Source of the DNA: Escherichia coli
GTDB lineage: Bacteria > Pseudomonadota > Gammaproteobacteria > Enterobacterales > Enterobacteriaceae
Direction: 5' to 3' (one strand)
DNA: 64,000 bases
Assembly: GCF_003334765.1 (NCBI RefSeq)
Contig: NZ_QOWT01000001.1
A model generated the notes under the pieces. It made no database searches. It had not been told where the DNA came from and worked only from the letters and a program-made list of their open reading frames with translations. A program made the position numbers and the translations under genes. Shown piece by piece: positions 1,239 through 59,938 of this stretch. The stretch's first letter is position 1; each line of letters opens with the position of its first letter.

Positions 1239-2354
1239 TTAGAACTGGTAGACGATACCAACTGCAAACTGGTCATCAGCTGCTGCGCCAGTAATGGCGG
1301 CGTCATCTTTATCCAGCATGTTGAATTTGTATGCAGTATAAACGTTCATGTTCTTATTAAAGTAGTACCAGGTACCAACTTCAATGTAGTTCACACGGTC
1401 AGCGTCAACATATCTATGTCCAGGTACCCCTTTGATATCTTTACCTTTAGAGTACACATAACCTAAGGACGGACGCAGACCAAAGTCGAATTGATACTGA
1501 ACAACCGCTTCAAAGTTCTGGGTTTCATTGATAAGTTGATCACGCATTATTGTATTGCCTTCTCGATCGGCAACACCTGTATCAATAGAACCCGGAGTCA
1601 TATTACGAGTTTCGCCGTACATTACAGCTGCGTAGACATTGTTCGCGTCATACTTTGCAGCCAACGACCACAGTTCAGCATTTGAACCGTTTCCATCGGC
1701 AACTTGATCGTTGGTGCGATCAGATTTGCTATATGCACCAACGATACCAAAACCATTGATGTTATAGTCTACAGACAACGCATAGCCGTCACCATTTTGT
1801 TTCTTAGTGCTACGGTTGCTGTTTTTGCCTTGGTACTGAATCGCAAAATCAAGACCATCAACCAGGCCAAAGAAATCATAGTTACGGTAGGTTGCAACAC
1901 CGTTGGTACGACCATTCATGAAGTTGTCAGCGGAAGCCCAGGAATCGCCACCCCATTCAACTAACATATCGGTATAAGCTGCGGCATCATAAGCAACACC
2001 GTAGTTACGGCCATAGTCAAATGATCCTAACTCGTTATATTTCAAACCGGCGAAGGTTAAACGGGTTTTTTCCTGGTTTTCACCTTCGGGCTTGCTGGCG
2101 TCGAGGTTGTATTCAAACTGACCAAAACCAGTCAGTTCGCTGGTGATTTGGGTTTCACCTTTAACACCGAAACGAGCATAGGAGGTATCTTCGTTTTCGC
2201 TGTTATTATCATCAGTATTTGACCAGATGCGTTCGCCAACCATCTTGCCGTAGAAATCAACTTTATTGCCATCTTTATTATAAATTTCAGCCGCATTTGC
2301 TGCGCCAGCAACTAATAACGCCGGGACCAGCATTGCCAGAACTTTTCTTTTCAT
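1239..2354 (-). CDS. yedS: OmpC-family outer membrane porin YedS, apparently intact
   Basis: ORF track 1239..2384; porin-like signal peptide [21 protein letters not shown] and C-terminal ...VGIVYQF; start placed at internal ATG 2352-2354. Confidence 0.8.
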
Positions 2355-2920
2355 TATGTATTCCCTTGTGATTATAATCTTCATGAATATATCAATAAGT
2401 GCCGTTATCCAAAAAAAAGCACATTTGGATACTATTCTATGAAGTTCATTTTATTTTAAGGATTACATGTAACAAATGTATTTAAAAGATTTCAAAATGT
2501 TTCTAATCTATTTAATATAATTCAGAATTATGAATTCTAAATATAAATATTCATGAAAATTATAAATGTATATCAATATGTTATGAGTTGGGTGGAAACA
2601 TAGGGGGTGTCAATGATTGTTGCGCTAAACGGCTGGTGTGATCACGCGCACATTAATGAAGGCATAAAAAAAAGCCGGCATCATGCCGGCCCAAAAAATA
2701 TAAACAAGACGATAAAAGGCTAATAACGGAGGCATCATGACACAGAATAATAAAAAGGTATAATTGTAATCAGTGCTAATATATTGATTGAATGAATTAA
2801 TAAAGCCGATCTCAAAGATAAATAAAATCGCTCAAAACGATTTTTCCTGTATTCACTGCCGTTGCGCAAAAATTATCTATTTGTTCAAAAAATGAGTGAG
2901 TCTTGACTGGCTCATCCAAT

Positions 2921-8387: not shown

Positions 8388-10912
<2,525 letters not shown>

Positions 10913-23707: not shown

Positions 23708-24050
23708 GTTTTGTAACCTGTTGACTATGCTTGTTTATTATATCCGATCCCACAGCGTGGGGCATGGATGGGGCAAACTCACTCAATTTCTGGTTTAAAA
23801 TGGATACCTGATCCTGAAAGTTTTCTGCCATCCACGATCCGTAAACGCGATAACATGTTTTGTCTTCGCTTTGCTCCCAGGAAGAGTGAACTCATTCGTT
23901 AGCCTGGGGTTCCTTCTGATCATTATTGTTCCTGCCTTTATCTCTTGCCACGCCAGAGCCCCCTGGATACACATACACCAGGATGAAAACGGTGAGTTGT
24001 GTTCAAACTGTAGTACAATTCTCTCCAGTATGAACAGGAAAGAATATGCT

Positions 24051-24383
24051 ATGAACCCTTATATTTATCTTGGTGGCGCAATACTTGCAGAGGTCATTGG
24101 TACAACCTTAATGAAGTTTTCAGAGGGGTTTACACGGTTATGGCCCTCTGTTGGCACAATTATTTGCTATTGTGCATCATTCTGGTTATTAGCTCAGACG
24201 CTGGCTTATATACCTACAGGGATTGCTTATGCTATCTGGTCAGGCGTCGGTATCGTTCTGATTAGTTTGCTTTCCTGGGGATTTTTTGGTCAACGACTGG
24301 ACCTGCCAGCTATCATAGGCATGATGTTGATTTGTGCCGGTGTGTTAGTCATTAACTTGTTGTCACGAAGTGCACCGCATTAA
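24051..24383 (+). CDS. emrE: SMR-family multidrug efflux transporter EmrE
   Basis: ORF track 23871..24383; internal ATG 24051 gives 110 aa MNPYIYLGGAILAEVIGTTLMKFSEGFTRLWPSVG... with four TM segments. Confidence 0.85.
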   Translation: MNPYIYLGGAILAEVIGTTLMKFSEGFTRLWPSVGTIICYCASFWLLAQTLAYIPTGIAYAIWSGVGIVLISLLSWGFFGQRLDLPAIIGMMLICAGVLVINLLSRSAPH

Positions 24384-24551
24384 AAAATAATTATCCTTGA
24401 GATAACAGGAATCTGATTTGTGCATATTATGGCTAATGTTCGGGGCACCTTTATAATTATGATTGCATTTGCGCGATCATTGCGCCTTTATGCATAATGA
24501 GATCAAGGCACATCAAATAAAATAACGATAGGTCACAACAATGAGGTTTTT

Positions 24552-25103
24552 ATGAAAAAACTTATCGTTTCAAGTGTATTGGCATTCATAACATTTTCTG
24601 CGCAGGCCGCAGCATTTCAGGTCACTAGTAATGAAATAAAAACAGGAGAGCAACTTACAACGTCTCATGTATTTTCTGGATTTGGGTGTGAAGGTGGTAA
24701 TACATCGCCCTCATTAACCTGGTCTGGTGCTCCTGAAGGCACCAAAAGCTTTGCCGTAACTGTGTATGATCCAGATGCTCCTACAGGCAGTGGATGGTGG
24801 CACTGGACTGTTGCTAATATTCCAGCAACTGTAACATATTTGCCCGCTGATGCAGGAAGACGTGATGGTACAAAACTTCCGACTGGTGCTGTTCAAGGCC
24901 GAAATGATTTTGGTTATGCAGGATTTGGTGGAGCATGTCCTCCCAAAGGAGATAAACCCCATCATTACCAGTTTAAAGTATGGGCTCTAAAAACTGATAA
25001 AATTCCTGTGGATTCTAATTCCAGCGGAGCGTTAGTTGGTTATATGCTTAATGCCAATAAAATTGCAACCGCTGAGATAACACCAGTTTATGAGATAAAG
25101 TAG
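24552..25103 (+). CDS. ybcL: periplasmic PEBP/RKIP-family protein YbcL
   Basis: 183 aa ORF with signal peptide and PEBP-like motifs (VYDPDAP..., GDKPHHYQFKVWAL). Confidence 0.8.
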   Translation: MKKLIVSSVLAFITFSAQAAAFQVTSNEIKTGEQLTTSHVFSGFGCEGGNTSPSLTWSGAPEGTKSFAVTVYDPDAPTGSGWWHWTVANIPATVTYLPADAGRRDGTKLPTGAVQGRNDFGYAGFGGACPPKGDKPHHYQFKVWALKTDKIPVDSNSSGALVGYMLNANKIATAEITPVYEIK

Positions 25104-25112
25104 GGTAAGAGT

Positions 25113-25910
25113 ATGCTGGCAAAAGATAAGACTAACCTAAAGATTGAAGAAATACGGATGCATAAACATCATGAGATTCACAGGGTTAAGCCTCTTATGC
25201 CAGCTTTATGTCGTATCCGTCAGGGAAAAAAAGTTATCAATTGGGAGACGCATAGTCTAACTGTTGATAATAATCAGATAATATTATTTCCCTGTGGATA
25301 TGAATTTTATATTGCGAATTATCCAGAAGCAGGTCTTTATCTTGCAGAAATGCTTTATTATCCCATTGATCTAATTGAAAAGTTTCAAAAATTTTATGCG
25401 ATAACTGATCAAATTCGTAACACGACAGGTTTCTGCTTACCTCAGAACCCCGAGTTAATATATTGTTGGGAGCAACTAAAAACATCTATTTCCCGAGGCT
25501 TCTCAACGCAAATTCAGGAACACTTAGCAATGGGCGTTCTACTTTCATTAGGAGCACATCATGTTAATTGTTTACTTTTATCAGATAGTAAACAATCATT
25601 AATAAGTCGTTGTTATAACCTAATGCTATCCGAACCTGGAACAAAATGGACAGCAAACAAGGTAGCGAGATATCTCTACATTTCTGTTTCCACATTGCAT
25701 CGCCGTCTGGCAAGCGAGGGAGTAAGTTTTCAAAGTATATTGGACGACGTGAGGTTAAATAATGCGTTGTCTGCTATACAAACGACAGTAAAACCCATCA
25801 GCGAGATTGCCAGGGAAAATGGTTACAAGTGTCCTTCTCGTTTTACTGAAAGGTTCCATAATCGTTTTAAGATAACACCAAGAGAGCTAAGAAAAGCGTC
25901 CAGAGAGTAA
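25113..25910 (+). CDS. ybcM: AraC-family transcriptional regulator YbcM-like
   Basis: 265 aa ORF with C-terminal AraC-type HTH; very AT-rich. Confidence 0.75.
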
Positions 25911-31854: not shown

Positions 31855-33267
31855 TCAGGAATTACTCATTGCAGTAAATTGTTGGCTGAGATAGGTACTG
31901 GTGTTATTCAGTTTGCTCATCATGGTATCTAATTGCGTAAACTGTGCAGTGTAACGCGCCACGGTGTCATCAATGCTGGCACTGACGGATAGATACTGTT
32001 TGGTCAGTTTTTTCAGTGTGGCGTTAATACTGTCCTGTGCGCTATCAATAATGCCATCATCGGCAAGGTAACCTTTTACCTCGGTGGTAATTTTGGTGGT
32101 AATTCCTGTTTCTTTACCATCGCCTACCAGCAATTCACGTACGGATGCTGTATTTTCATTCAGGACTTTTTTGAGTTTATCATCATCAATTTTCAGCTTA
32201 CCCGTCGTGCCGTCCTGCTTAATCCCGATCTCGTTTAATGTTTTGAAGGCACCGTCGCTGGCACCGTTTGCAAATTGTGCGCGGATGCCGCTTTGAATTG
32301 TACGTACAACGCTGTCTCCGAGAAGTGCACCATTATTTTTATCTTGTGCTTCAGCACCTGGGTCTACTTCTTTATATTTTGTCAGGGTGTTAAAGGTGTC
32401 AATGAGGGAGTTATATGAATCCACCCAGCCTTTAATTGCTTCGGTTGCTTTATCGTTGCTTTTTGTCACCGTGACCCGGACGTCAGTGACTTTTTTGGTC
32501 AAATCGAGAGTCACTCCCTGAGGAGCATCGGTAATTTTGTTACTTGAACGTTCAATATCGATACCGTTAACGTTTAGCTGTGCATTTTGCGCGTTAACCA
32601 GTTCCTTCATATTCCCGGTGTTGGTCTTGCTGTCATAAGCCAGCAGATCATTTAATTTACTGTCACCCTCAACAGATATGGTCATTTTATTGGCCAGACC
32701 TTCACTGGCGGTCAATACCAATTGATAGTCACCATCTTTGACTTTAACGATACTAGCGGAAATTCCACTATCGGCATCGTTAATGGCTTTGCTGATCTCA
32801 CCCAATGACGTCTGATCTTTATTGAGCTTGATTTCCAGCGGCTCTTTACGGCCGTCTTGGGTAATTTTTATTGTGCGTGTATCTGATGACTCATCACCCA
32901 GTGCATCTTTTGTTGATGCAATGATTGTCGGGGAATCAGTTCGTAAAGATTGCGCCTGCGCCAGTTGGGTTACGCTGATGGTATAGATACCGGGGGCAGC
33001 ACCTGCTTCGGTGGAAACTTTAAGGTCTTCATTGCTACTGGTAACGGTAGTGCTTTTGAACAGATCGGCTTTATTTAACGCAGTATTTGCAGTCTGGAAT
33101 TTTTCTAATGCACTTTTTAATGTGCCATAGGCTGTCAGACGTGCGGTATTGTCACTCTGTTGCTGAGTAATTGGGTTTAAGCGTTTTTTTTCAGCGATGG
33201 TCAGGTTGTTTAGCAATGTATCCAGCGGCAGATTCGAACCAACGCCAAGAGATGTAAATGAAGCCAT
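31855..33267 (-). CDS. fliD: flagellar filament cap protein FliD (divergent allele)
   Basis: ORF track 31855..33345; start at ATG 33265-33267 giving MASFTSLGVGSNLPLDTLL...; 470 aa. Confidence 0.88.
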   Translation of the reverse strand: MASFTSLGVGSNLPLDTLLNNLTIAEKKRLNPITQQQSDNTARLTAYGTLKSALEKFQTANTALNKADLFKSTTVTSSNEDLKVSTEAGAAPGIYTISVTQLAQAQSLRTDSPTIIASTKDALGDESSDTRTIKITQDGRKEPLEIKLNKDQTSLGEISKAINDADSGISASIVKVKDGDYQLVLTASEGLANKMTISVEGDSKLNDLLAYDSKTNTGNMKELVNAQNAQLNVNGIDIERSSNKITDAPQGVTLDLTKKVTDVRVTVTKSNDKATEAIKGWVDSYNSLIDTFNTLTKYKEVDPGAEAQDKNNGALLGDSVVRTIQSGIRAQFANGASDGAFKTLNEIGIKQDGTTGKLKIDDDKLKKVLNENTASVRELLVGDGKETGITTKITTEVKGYLADDGIIDSAQDSINATLKKLTKQYLSVSASIDDTVARYTAQFTQLDTMMSKLNNTSTYLSQQFTAMSNS

Positions 33268-33521: not shown

Positions 33522-35015
33522 ATGGCACAAGTCATTAATACAAACAGCCTGTCGCTGTTGACCCAGAATAACCTGAATAAATCTCAGTCTTCTCTGAGCT
33601 CCGCCATTGAACGTCTCTCTTCTAGCCTGCGTATTAACAGTGCTAAAGATGACGCAGCAGGTCAGGCGATTGCTAACCGTTTTACGGCAAATATTAAAGG
33701 TCTGACTCAGGCTTCCCGTAACGCGAATGATGGTATTTCTGTTGCGCAGACCACTGAAGGTGCGCTGAATGAAATTAACAACAACCTGCAGCGTATTCGT
33801 GAACTTTCTGTTCAGGCAACTAACGGTACTAACTCTGACAGTGACCTGACCTCCATCCAGTCCGAAATCCAGCAACGTCTGAGTGAAATTGACCGTGTTT
33901 CTGGTCAGACTCAGTTTAACGGCGTTAAAGTGCTGGCTTCTGATCAGGATATGACTATTCAGGTTGGTGCAAACGACGGCGAAACAATTACTATTAAACT
34001 GCAGGAAATTAATTCCGACACACTGGGATTATCTGGTTTTGGTATTAAAGATCCTACTAAATTAAAAGCCGCAACAGCTGAAACAACCTATTTTGGATCG
34101 ACAGTTAAGCTTGCTGACGCTAATACACTTGATGCAGATATTACAGCTACAGTTAAAGGCACTACGACTCCGGGCAAACGTGACGGTAATATTATGTCTG
34201 ATGCTAACGGTAAGTTGTACGTTAAAGTTGCCGGTTCAGATAAATCCCCTGAAAATGGTTATTATGAAGTTACTGTGGAGGATGATCCGACATCTCCTGA
34301 TGCAGGTAAGCTGAAGCTGGGGGCTCTAGCGGGTACCCAGCCTCAAGCAGGTAATTTAAAGGAAGTCACAACGGTGAAAGGGAAGGGGGCTATTGATGTT
34401 CAGTTGGGTACTGATACCGCAACCGCTTCTATCACAGGTGCAAAACTCTTTAAGTTAGAAGACGCTAATGGCAAAGATACTGGTTCATTTGCGTTGATTG
34501 GTGATGACGGTAAACAGTATGCAGCGAATGTTGATCAGAAAACAGGTGCAGTTTCCGTTAAAACAATGTCTTACACTGATGCTGACGGTGTCAAACACGA
34601 CAATGTTAAAGTTGAACTGGGTGGAAGCGATGGCAAAACCGAAGTTGTAACTGCAACCGATGGCAAAACTTACAGTGTTAGTGATTTACAAGGTAAGAGC
34701 CTGAAAACTGATTCTATTGCAGCAATTTCTACGCAGAAAACAGAAGATCCTTTGGCTGCTATCGATAAAGCACTGTCTCAGGTTGACTCGTTGCGTTCTA
34801 ACCTAGGTGCAATTCAAAACCGTTTCGACTCTGCCATCACCAACCTTGGCAACACCGTAAACAACCTGTCTTCTGCCCGTAGCCGTATCGAAGATGCTGA
34901 CTACGCGACCGAAGTGTCTAACATGTCTCGTGCGCAGATCCTGCAACAAGCAGGTACTTCTGTTCTGGCACAGGCTAACCAGACCACGCAGAACGTACTG
35001 TCTCTGCTGCGTTAA
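33522..35015 (+). CDS. fliC: flagellin FliC (H-antigen; variable central domain)
   Basis: 497 aa ORF MAQVINTNSLSLLTQNNLNKSQSSLSSAIERL... ...AQANQTTQNVLSLLR. Confidence 0.93.
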   Translation: MAQVINTNSLSLLTQNNLNKSQSSLSSAIERLSSSLRINSAKDDAAGQAIANRFTANIKGLTQASRNANDGISVAQTTEGALNEINNNLQRIRELSVQATNGTNSDSDLTSIQSEIQQRLSEIDRVSGQTQFNGVKVLASDQDMTIQVGANDGETITIKLQEINSDTLGLSGFGIKDPTKLKAATAETTYFGSTVKLADANTLDADITATVKGTTTPGKRDGNIMSDANGKLYVKVAGSDKSPENGYYEVTVEDDPTSPDAGKLKLGALAGTQPQAGNLKEVTTVKGKGAIDVQLGTDTATASITGAKLFKLEDANGKDTGSFALIGDDGKQYAANVDQKTGAVSVKTMSYTDADGVKHDNVKVELGGSDGKTEVVTATDGKTYSVSDLQGKSLKTDSIAAISTQKTEDPLAAIDKALSQVDSLRSNLGAIQNRFDSAITNLGNTVNNLSSARSRIEDADYATEVSNMSRAQILQQAGTSVLAQANQTTQNVLSLLR

Positions 35016-53426: not shown

Positions 53427-56782
<3,356 letters not shown>

Positions 56783-56788
56783 GAGCGG

Positions 56789-57217
56789 TTAATCTCCCGT
56801 AAGTGGAACTAACAGCACATCGACCTCACTTGAGGCAATCACTCTTTTCGCCGAGCAGGATGCTCGCGAAAAGAAACTGTGATTGTGATTACCGCAAATC
56901 ACCAAATCGAAATGATGTTTGTGACATACTTCCAGAATATGTTCGCTTAACTCACCGTAGGCAATAAACGTCTTGTCAACGGGATACCCCGCATCCTGAA
57001 TTAACTTATCAAGAAAGCTTTGCGTTTCTTCCTGCATCACGCTGCGTAAATCTTCAAGCATCGGCGCAGCTAATTGATTGTACATTTCCGGGTCGGAAGC
57101 GAGAGTAATTAAACTGATGTGTCCCTTTACTGGCCTGGCGATAGATACCGCTTTTGCCAGCAGTTGCTGACTTTCCGGTGTAACCGCAACAGCGACAAGA
57201 ATATTGCTATAGCTCAT
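56789..57217 (-). CDS. uspC: universal stress protein UspC
   Basis: 142 aa ORF MSYSNILVAVAVTPESQQLL... Confidence 0.88.
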   Translation of the reverse strand: MSYSNILVAVAVTPESQQLLAKAVSIARPVKGHISLITLASDPEMYNQLAAPMLEDLRSVMQEETQSFLDKLIQDAGYPVDKTFIAYGELSEHILEVCHKHHFDLVICGNHNHSFFSRASCSAKRVIASSEVDVLLVPLTGD

Positions 57218-57987
57218 AACCTGTTCCTTATTCTGTGAACTTCAGGTGACATTAAAGCTTTACTCCTAATGGAGAAACGACGCAATCCCAACTCAGTCAA
57301 ACAGGTAAATATTAGTCTGATTATTAGTAAATACAATTAATCAATCACTCCCGGTGATCATATGATTTCAACTGTAATTATAAGAAAATAATGTACTGAT
57401 TCCCCGTATTAAACAAGTGGTTAATATATGCAAAACATTTTATTAACATTAAGTTGATTGTTGCCTTTCTTTGTATCTAATTAGTTTGTTGTGCGGTAAG
57501 TGTCTGTTTAAAAATAGCTTATCTGGTATTGCATGAAAGTGATTATTTATAGCAGATGATTATTTACGGTGAGTTATTTTAACTGTGCGCAACATCCCAT
57601 TTCGATTATTCCTGTTTCATTTTTGCTTGCTAGCGTAGCGAAAAACTTTTTAACAGATTGAAATACACCCAAAACAAAAGTATGGCTTATACATTTATGT
57701 TAAGTAATTGAGTGTTTTGTGTGATCTGCATCACACATTATTGAAAATCGCAGCCCTCCTCCGTAGTATGTGCGTGTAGTGACGAGTACAGTTGCGTCGA
57801 TTTAGGAAAAATCTTAGATAAGTGTAAAGACCCCCTTCTATTTGTAAGGACTTATTAAACCAAAAAGGTGGCTCTGCTTATTGCAGCTTATCGCAACTAT
57901 TCTAATGCTAATTATTTTTTGCCGGGTCTTCCCGGCGACATCACGGGGTGCGGTGAAACCGCATAAAAATAAAGTTGGTTATTCTGG
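57218..57987. promoter_or_regulatory. flhDC upstream regulatory region (AT-rich, no insertion element visible)
   Basis: About 770 bp AT-rich intergenic region between divergent uspC and flhD with no transposase ORF. Confidence 0.6.
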
Positions 57988-58347
57988 GTGGGAATAATGC
58001 ATACCTCCGAGTTGCTGAAACACATTTATGACATCAACTTGTCATATTTACTACTTGCACAGCGTTTGATTGTTCAGGACAAAGCGTCCGCTATGTTTCG
58101 TCTCGGCATAAATGAAGAAATGGCGACAACGTTAGCGGCACTGACTCTTCCGCAAATGGTTAAGCTGGCAGAAACCAATCAACTGGTTTGTCACTTCCGT
58201 TTTGACAGCCACCAGACGATTACTCAGTTGACGCAAGATTCCCGCGTTGACGATCTCCAGCAAATTCATACCGGCATCATGCTCTCAACACGCTTGCTGA
58301 ATGATGTTAATCAGCCTGAAGAAGCGCTGCGCAAGAAAAGGGCCTGA
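57988..58347 (+). CDS. flhD: flagellar master regulator FlhD
   Basis: 119 aa [30 protein letters not shown]... (true start may be a few codons downstream). Confidence 0.9.
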
Positions 58348-58349
58348 TC

Positions 58350-58928
58350 ATGAGTGAAAAAAGCATTGTTCAGGAAGCGCGGGATATTCAGCTGGCAATG
58401 GAATTGATCACCCTGGGCGCTCGTTTGCAGATGCTGGAAAGCGAAACACAGTTAAGTCGCGGACGCCTGATAAAACTTTATAAAGAACTGCGCGGAAGCC
58501 CACCGCCGAAAGGCATGCTGCCATTCTCAACCGACTGGTTTATGACCTGGGAACAAAACGTTCATGCTTCGATGTTCTGTAATGCATGGCAGTTTTTACT
58601 GAAAACCGGTTTGTGTAATGGCGTCGATGCGGTGATCAAAGCCTACCGTTTATACCTTGAACAGTGCCCACAAGCAGAAGAAGGACCACTGCTGGCATTA
58701 ACCCGTGCCTGGACATTGGTGCGGTTTGTTGAAAGTGGATTACTGCAACTTTCCAGCTGCAACTGCTGCGGCGGCAATTTTATTACCCACGCTCACCAGC
58801 CTGTTGGCAGCTTTGCCTGCAGCTTATGTCAACCGCCATCCCGGGCAGTAAAAAGACGTAAACTTTCCCAGAATCCTGCCGATATTATCCCACAACTGCT
58901 GGATGAACAGAGAGTACAGGCTGTTTAA
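58350..58928 (+). CDS. flhC: flagellar master regulator FlhC
   Basis: 192 aa ORF with zinc-binding Cys cluster. Confidence 0.92.
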
Positions 58929-58952
58929 CTGATACGGTGTGGCGCAACATTC

Positions 58953-58986
58953 CAGCAGCGGTAACGACGTACCGCTGCTTTTTTTT
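58953..58986 (+). terminator. Rho-independent terminator after flhC
   Basis: cagcagcggtaacgacgtaccgctgc hairpin followed by tttttttt. Confidence 0.7.
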
Positions 58987-59054
58987 GCCCCAATCGCGCG
59001 TTAACGCCTGACGACTGAACATCCTGTCATGGTCAACAGTGGAAGGATGATGTC

Positions 59055-59938
59055 GTGCTTATCTTATTAGGTTACCTGGTTGTTCTCGGTACAGTTTTCG
59101 GCGGTTATTTGATGACCGGTGGAAGCCTTGGAGCACTCTATCAACCCGCTGAACTGGTGATTATTGCCGGTGCAGGGATTGGGTCGTTTATCGTCGGCAA
59201 TAATGGCAAAGCGATTAAAGGCACGCTGAAAGCGCTGCCGTTGCTGTTTCGTCGCTCCAAATACACCAAAGCAATGTATATGGATCTGCTGGCTCTGCTT
59301 TATCGGTTGATGGCGAAATCGCGGCAGATGGGGATGTTTTCGCTGGAACGTGATATTGAAAATCCCCGTGAGAGCGAGATCTTCGCCAGCTACCCACGCA
59401 TCCTCGCGGATAGCGTCATGCTTGATTTTATCGTCGATTATCTGCGCCTGATTATCAGCGGTCACATGAACACCTTCGAAATCGAAGCCCTGATGGATGA
59501 AGAGATTGAGACGCACGAAAGCGAGGCAGAAGTCCCGGCGAACAGTCTGGCGCTGGTCGGGGACTCACTTCCGGCGTTTGGTATTGTCGCGGCTGTAATG
59601 GGGGTCGTTCACGCGTTAGGTTCAGCCGATCGTCCTGCCGCCGAGCTGGGGGCGCTTATCGCACATGCGATGGTGGGGACTTTCCTCGGTATTTTATTGG
59701 CTTACGGATTTATTTCCCCACTAGCGAGTGTTTTACGTCAGAAAAGCGCCGAAACCAGCAAAATGATGCAGTGCGTCAAAGTCACTCTGCTTTCTAATCT
59801 GAACGGTTACGCACCGCCTATCGCCGTTGAGTTTGGTCGCAAAACGCTCTATTCCAGCGAACGTCCGTCGTTTATTGAACTGGAAGAGCATGTGCGTGCG
59901 GTGAAAAATCCGCAACAACAGACGACAACCGAGGAAGC

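Follow-up and report, generated by a model that had tools for sequence, protein, structure and literature searches.

An uninterrupted uspC-flhD regulatory region of the flagellar master operon flhDC in Escherichia coli, with rare substitutions in the core promoter

Does the regulatory region of the flagellar master operon flhDC carry an insertion sequence (IS) in the stretch of Escherichia coli DNA analysed here (64 kb, referred to below as the window), and what can the presence or absence of such an element tell us about motility? The spacer between uspC and flhD was called a hot spot for IS insertion in laboratory strains in the preliminary description of this DNA, and published work bears this out: IS1, IS5 and IS3 insertions at approximately -96 to -476 activate flhDC in K-12 stocks (PMC5100188, PMC5493358, PMC11237407), and in MG1655 Fnr- and BW25113 IS5 occupies a TTAA that lies 96-99 bp before the flhD start site (PMC5100188). 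The same hot spot is visible in complete genomes, in which the IS1 junction of MG1655 was found in 50 genomes and the IS5 junction of W3110/MC4100 in 62; among the matches listed, all of these are laboratory K-12 lines, judged by strain name or genome size. Based on the results presented below, the segment at 57218-57996 of the window is very probably the ordinary, uninterrupted regulatory region of flhDC, located between the divergent genes uspC and flhD. Its coordinates and those of its elements are collected in Table 1.

Table 1. Features of the uspC-flhDC locus in the 64-kb window (positions are those of the window; +1 is the inferred flhDC transcription start)
Feature	Position	Strand	Basis or remark
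uspC (universal stress protein C), divergent from flhDC	56789..57217	-	142-aa ORF, 99.3% identical to full-length K-12 UspC
uspC-flhD intergenic regulatory region, 779 bp, without IS	57218..57996	.	aligns colinearly with 8 diverse E. coli alleles and with K-12 minus its IS
Empty target of MG1655 IS1H, CATTTATG, single copy	57692..57699	.	in MG1655 the 8-mer flanks the 768-bp IS1H on both sides
TTAA target of IS5 at the hot spot, empty and single-copy, -99 to -96 relative to +1	57700..57703	.	W3110 IS5 is flanked by TTAA exactly there
Predicted CRP site TGTGATCTGCATCACA, perfect consensus half-sites, centred at -71.5 with +1 = 57799	57720..57735	+	read from sequence
TTGAAA, -35-like, pairs with the new TAGTAT	57741..57746	+	promoter scan; in all sampled E. 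coli alleles; Salmonella TCTAAA
Canonical PflhD -35 hexamer, TAGTAT here, TTGTAT elsewhere	57764..57769	+	T>A at 57765 (-34)
Canonical PflhD -10 hexamer TACAGT	57787..57792	+	7 nt upstream of the inferred start; same as K-12
flhDC transcription start, inferred; 5' UTR 198 nt	57799	+	two independent mappings
RcsAB-box-like TAGGAAAAATCTTA, just downstream of the start site	57803..57816	+	identical to K-12 and Salmonella
Antisense RNA AsflhD, mapped	57799..58018	-	K-12 feature 1978176-1978395 carried over by colinear coordinates
flhD, intact	57997..58347	+	116 aa, 100% identical to K-12, 0 nucleotide differences
flhC, intact	58350..58928	+	192 aa, 100% identical to K-12, 0 nucleotide differences
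MotR, mapped	58892-58986		mapped by K-12 coordinates only

The locus was identified from its ORFs and from tblastn searches with K-12 proteins, which gave the gene order otsB, otsA, uspC (minus strand), spacer, flhD (plus strand), flhC, motA, motB. Full-length matches to the K-12 proteins, at 99-100% identity, were obtained along the whole series otsB-otsA-uspC-flhD-flhC-motA-motB. The synteny of otsBA-uspC on one side and flhDC-motAB-cheAW on the other is the same as in K-12, the encoded proteins are near-identical to those of K-12, and an identical locus in strain 1428 is annotated with the same genes, including uspC. The segment shows several of the features by which an E. coli flhDC regulatory region is recognized: it is positioned between the divergent uspC and flhD, flhC-motAB-cheAW follows downstream, and it is colinear with the K-12 spacer.

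The first base of the spacer, 57218, is the one next to the start codon of uspC on the minus strand. The other border depends on the start codon of flhD. With the ATG at 57997, which is the RefSeq start and yields the 116-aa FlhD, the spacer ends at 57996 and is 779 bp long; with an upstream in-frame GTG, it ends at 57987 and is 770 bp long. The latter value agrees with the earlier description of about 770 bp of AT-rich DNA lacking a transposase ORF, and the composition and coding content of the spacer agree with it as well. The GC content is 35.2%, compared with 49.5% over the entire window; of 6,323 sliding windows of 770 bp, no more than 46 fall below the value of the spacer. The longest stop-free stretch in the six frames is 49 aa, and the sole ORF of at least 40 aa that is essentially contained in the spacer is a 40-aa ORF starting with TTG.

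By superposing the spacer on K-12 sequences from which the IS elements had been removed, the absence of an insertion becomes apparent. After removal of IS1H (768 bp) from MG1655, with one copy of the 8-bp duplication CATTTATG retained, the two spacers align over 779 versus 779 bp, with 22 substitutions and 0 indels. Similarly, the W3110 spacer without IS5 (1,195 bp) and with one TTAA retained is identical to the IS-less MG1655 sequence. With their elements in place, the spacers of MG1655 and W3110 measure 1,555 bp and 1,978 bp, versus 779 bp in the window. In addition, no indel longer than 1 bp occurs in the alignment with 8 diverse E. coli alleles. The target sites of IS1H and IS5 are adjacent in the window, and both are empty. 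Terminal-repeat patterns of IS1 and IS5, searched with up to three mismatches, are absent from the spacer. Short-word blastn of the spacer against IS1, IS3, IS5, IS30, IS911 and ISX, taken from MG1655, gave no similarity above noise, the best score being 26 bits versus up to 34 bits in shuffled controls, and the whole 64-kb window has no match to these six elements. An IS between the genes, a duplicated target site and a transposase ORF, which mark an IS-activated flhDC allele, are all missing from the spacer. The alignment to MG1655, W3110 and IS1/IS5 that had been proposed as a check in the preliminary description thus upholds its statement that the region is free of IS elements, as neither IS terminal repeats nor an IS fragment came to light.

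A broader search points in the same direction. When the spacer was compared by sensitive blastn with 72,556 plasmids, which served as a broad IS detector, only 13 records were returned and no multi-copy signal of the IS type was seen; an IS fragment would match very many plasmids, so the small number argues against such a fragment in the spacer. Most of the 13 records are chromosome-like flhDC loci of E. coli or Salmonella, and one is an odd Bacillus record. In E. coli genomes, the spacer occurs at a median of 1 place per genome. It is extremely improbable that the spacer hides a decayed piece of an IS or a scar left by excision; this reading could appeal only to short direct repeats such as TGATTATTTA, present twice, at 57540 and 57557, whereas these repeats are identical in K-12, each base of the spacer has its counterpart in the uninterrupted alleles of 10 further strains, and, at the sensitivity reached, the searches brought up neither IS ends nor IS similarity over that of shuffled sequences nor multi-copy matches in genomes or plasmids. 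An excision scar at the 10-bp repeat 57540/57557 was considered and rejected because the repeat is also found in K-12; the other repeats are short and at chance level. In general, nothing was found that contradicts the identity of the region or its lack of an IS.

The Bacillus record deserves a separate remark. In HM037272.1, a Bacillus thuringiensis CT-43 plasmid record, the segment 68388-68877 (490 bp) matches the uspC-flhD spacer of E. coli at 97% identity, and the match stops exactly at the IS hot spot. This segment is most likely E. coli K-12 DNA that contaminates the Bacillus thuringiensis assembly.

The uninterrupted state is common in the species. The spacer was found in 5,422 of 5,426 complete E. 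coli genomes, in 5,272 of them 80% or more of its length lies at a single place, and approximately 94% of the 5,422 genomes that carry the region have it uninterrupted. When 60 genomes were sampled evenly, 56 spacers proved to be uninterrupted single pieces, 2 contained an IS1-family transposase and 2 were truncated. These values and the other allele frequencies given here are estimates from exact-match counts of short queries and from the 60-row even sample. The IS-free spacer is in fact the common state of this well-known region, and the observation, true as it is, is ordinary.

IS elements do enter this spacer in nature. Two non-K-12 natural isolates, NZ_CP182182.1 (pig) and NZ_CP051661.1 (human), have an IS1-family element inside the uspC-flhD spacer, which implies that insertion at this site is not confined to laboratory strains. 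In wastewater-adapted E. coli, which are also natural strains, the same intergenic region harbors IS30 or ISEc33, and the uspC-IS30-flhDC insertion was found only in the wastewater clade and in 0 of 845 human and animal isolates (PMC5007776). The latter count agrees with the IS-free state as the norm. In contrast to this wastewater marker, the spacer of the window has no similarity to IS30.

Compared with the individual K-12 types, the window differs first of all in its empty target sites. In the sequenced stock of MG1655 (NC_000913.3, 1978198-1979752), the flanking genes are the same and the spacer is 97.2% identical to that of the window, but IS1H and its 8-bp duplication occupy the site matching 57692-57699. 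The W3110/MC4100 type (NC_007779.1) has the same spacer, with IS5 and a 4-bp duplication at the equivalent of 57700-57703, whereas the window is without IS5. In the IS-free, poorly motile K-12 stocks (for example BW25113 and some MG1655 stocks), the spacer is uninterrupted, as it is in the window, and the IS-free K-12 promoter is associated with low, conditional flhDC expression (PMC5493358, PMC11237407). However, the 22 differences between the IS-free K-12 promoter and the window include the CRP half-site, which is consensus in the window, as well as positions -42 and -34; consequently, K-12 phenotypes are not simply transferable to the window allele.

The positions of these differences within the promoter follow from the start site, whose predicted position, 57799, comes from two independent mappings. 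On the one hand, the RefSeq AsflhD feature ends at K-12 position 1978395, 198 nt upstream of the ATG (PMC9600491); on the other hand, the published IS5 TTAA at -99 to -96 (PMC5100188) lands on a TTAA only if +1 is 57799. The start-site region is identical to that of K-12, and in the alignment the -10 hexamer TACAGT is homologous to the -10 of Salmonella P1flhDC (TATAGT), which was validated by mutagenesis and of which a TACAGT variant remains active (PMC3946378).

In the predicted CRP site, the substitution G>A at -64 (window position 57735) turns the half-site TCACG of K-12, MG1655 included, into TCACA. The 43-mer containing TCACA is exact in 3,183 genomes and is thus the majority allele; TCACG is the minority allele, which implies that the K-12 reference promoter is atypical of the species. 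The position of the predicted site is the one from which CRP reportedly acts at flhDC, as Soutourina et al. described in 1999. Downstream of the start, TAGGAAAAATCTTA is presumably an RcsAB box, a candidate assignment that we make after Francez-Charlot et al. (2003). The AsflhD segment inside flhD is 100% identical to the K-12 nucleotides, its 5' UTR segment carries 6 substitutions, and the function of this antisense RNA has been described (PMC9600491). An Rfam scan of 56500-59300 at E<=1 returned no match, so no curated RNA family was recognized in that interval.

The known regulators of flhDC include H-NS, LrhA, OmpR, RcsAB and other binding proteins, as well as CsrA and small RNAs, which control the leader. 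From the anatomy above, we infer the promoter function, regulator binding and motility phenotype of the window allele as follows. Transcription would start near 57799 from a sigma-70 promoter with its -10 at 57787-57792, activated by cAMP-CRP centred at -71.5. Binding sites of the known repressors and of nucleoid proteins would be situated in the AT-rich upstream DNA and in the start-proximal region, and further, post-transcriptional control may come from the 198-nt leader and from the antisense RNA AsflhD. As there is no IS upstream of approximately -96, derepression of the MG1655 (IS1) or W3110/MC4100 (IS5) type would not be expected, and flhDC expression should then depend on the normal environmental inputs.

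The spacer and the coding sequence differ markedly in their relationship to K-12. Over approximately 930 bp, flhD and flhC show 0 nucleotide differences from K-12, whereas the adjoining 779-bp spacer differs at 22 sites, and 6 of the substitutions are found in the 198-nt leader. This contrast suggests that recombination has made the regulatory region a mosaic or that the two parts are under very unequal constraint.

Most of the 22 substitutions relative to K-12 are shared haplotype differences, as the alignment with the 8 diverse E. coli alleles shows. The exceptions of interest are C>T at 57757 (-42) and T>A at 57765 (-34), which none of the other sequences in the alignment of 11 alleles shares with the window; even the nearest allele, which is 99.2% identical, has neither of them. 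The 40-mer 57758-57797, which includes the A at -34, is exact in 90 of 5,426 genomes and occurs with one or two mismatches in 4,510 genomes, with just one in nearly all of the rows sampled. In agreement with the count of 90, a spacer at least 99% identical over its whole length was found in 95 genomes. Position -34 is the second in the conserved -35 hexamer TTGTAT, located 17 bp upstream of the -10, and its T is present in 10 of 10 other E. coli alleles and in Salmonella; in the window, the hexamer reads TAGTAT. The rare -34/-42 double change is the sole unusual feature of the region.

The homologous promoter of Salmonella enterica, P1flhDC, has a CRP site, the -35 TTGTAT, the -10, the start-site region and an RcsB-box-like sequence in common with the window, although the identity is approximately 70% and extends only over the proximal ~280 bp. 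Unlike the window, Salmonella has additional promoters (P5) and is without the TTGAAA hexamer.

The T>A change at -34 also has a second consequence at the level of motifs, as it creates TTGAAA-N17-TAGTAT, found by the promoter scan with 9 of 12 matches, 22 bp upstream of the canonical promoter. Read as a -10 element, TAGTAT gains the critical A at position 2 and has a T at position 6. Promoter-like matches are, however, not enriched in the spacer, with 2 found versus 3.1 expected from shuffled sequence. The core promoter of the window allele may be unlike the characterised one of K-12, and the -42 and -34 changes may weaken the canonical promoter, shift the start upstream or be neutral. Neutrality of the -34/-42 change takes the share of likelihood that the two functional readings leave.

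A weakening of the canonical promoter can be proposed tentatively. The T>A change at -34 would lead to poorer recognition of the -35, less flhDC transcription, a greater dependence on CRP than in typical E. coli, and poor motility despite intact genes, with C>T at -42 perhaps making up for part of the loss. Within the -35 consensus, TTG is the best-conserved part, and the invariance of the T in the other E. coli alleles and in Salmonella, together with the rarity of the A, is consistent with such an effect. So is the drop of the canonical promoter from 8.6 bits in K-12 to 4.7 bits in the window, in a crude sigma-70 weight matrix that was built on approximate textbook consensus frequencies and is indicative only. 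On the other hand, all flagellar genes of the window are intact, and the allele persists in approximately 90 genomes from many hosts and countries, both of which argue against a loss of function; moreover, poor -35 elements are tolerated by activator-dependent promoters.

A shift of the promoter is a rather unlikely reading. It holds that the lineage of approximately 90 of 5,426 genomes rewired flhDC by point mutation, so that transcription would start ~22 nt further upstream, near 57776, CRP would lie at approximately -49, a non-activating position, catabolite control would be reduced, and the 5' end of the leader would be altered. In the same crude, indicative matrix, the upstream TTGAAA/TAGTAT rises from 6.0 bits in K-12 to 11.8 bits, which is above both the canonical K-12 promoter (8.6) and lac P1 (9.9). 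In addition to being flagged by the scan, this 29-bp element contains both window-unique changes in a core that is otherwise nearly invariant. Fahrner and Berg (2015) reportedly described single-base changes in the flhDC promoter, spacer and CRP region that stimulate flhDC in K-12. Nevertheless, consensus matches are no proof of function and are equally common in shuffled sequence, the matrix frequencies are approximate textbook values, and CRP bound beside the new -35 could occlude it.

With respect to the genes that flhDC controls and their neighbors, the fli, mot and che genes had been described as intact, and this holds for all of them that lie fully inside the window: fliE-R, fliAZ, fliST, flhDC, motAB and cheAW are full-length ORFs of K-12 length. 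The gene tar is cut by the window end, and flg, flhBAE, cheRBYZ and trans regulators such as lrhA are located outside the window. The filament genes are of another antigenic type than those of K-12: fliC (33522-35015) is a full-length ORF 58% identical to the K-12 H48 flagellin, and fliD (31858-33267) is a full-length ORF 50% identical to its K-12 counterpart. The variable region of fliC shares 98.9% identity with its counterpart in O103:H2 and O45:H2 strains, which makes the gene H2-like by sequence; it is 100% identical in many of the genomes listed, for example NCTC9100, and at least 99% identical in 46 genomes. Another difference concerns dgcQ (yedQ, diguanylate cyclase; 8388-10082, plus strand), in which CAG>TAG at 9321-9323 introduces a premature stop at codon 312 of 564, before the catalytic domain is reached. 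An exact copy of the 41-mer carrying this stop was found in 208 genomes, O104:H4 strains among them.

Elsewhere, the window does contain a transposon remnant, approximately 31 kb away from flhDC. The segment 26067-26943 comprises an IS200/IS605-family tnpA (NF033573, E=5e-36) and the N-terminal ~100 aa of a TnpB; it is adjoined by a truncated yedK (142 of 222 aa aligned), and yedL is absent. In the interval between fliE and yedK, 23871-25910 encodes an EmrE-type SMR efflux gene, a YbhB/YbcL-type kinase-inhibitor-like gene and an AraC-family regulator, whereas K-12 has the pseudogenes yedN and intG instead. Similarly, an intact 381-aa OmpF/OmpC/PhoE-like porin ORF (1239-2384, minus strand), which scores under the curated cut-offs of all three models, is located where K-12 has the yedS pseudogene; this ORF is the lowest-GC stretch of the window.

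Taken as a whole, the preliminary interpretation stands as far as the IS-free spacer and the intact genes are concerned. Its further step, from the lack of an IS to a tightly regulated operon and conditional motility, is not supported as stated, because the promoter differs from that of K-12 (TCACA in the CRP site, -42 and -34), because dgcQ carries a premature stop, and because flg, flhBAE, cheRBYZ and lrhA lie outside the window. From the lack of an IS alone, the motility of a non-K-12 strain cannot be predicted. The IS-free spacer matters little in its own right, as it only confirms that the background of the window is not laboratory K-12. The rule derived from K-12, in which strains with an IS are motile and strains without one are poorly motile, should not be extended to natural strains, because natural alleles differ at functional promoter positions: in most natural E. 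coli the CRP site is consensus, unlike that of K-12, and the lineage of the window has a rare -35 change. If the promoter were indeed shifted, point mutation would have achieved what IS insertion brings about in K-12. More generally, if the -34 change shifts or weakens the promoter, it would represent a natural tuning of the flagellar master switch by point mutation, and such tuning would bear on the trade-offs between motility and fitness in acid survival, biofilm formation and gut colonisation.
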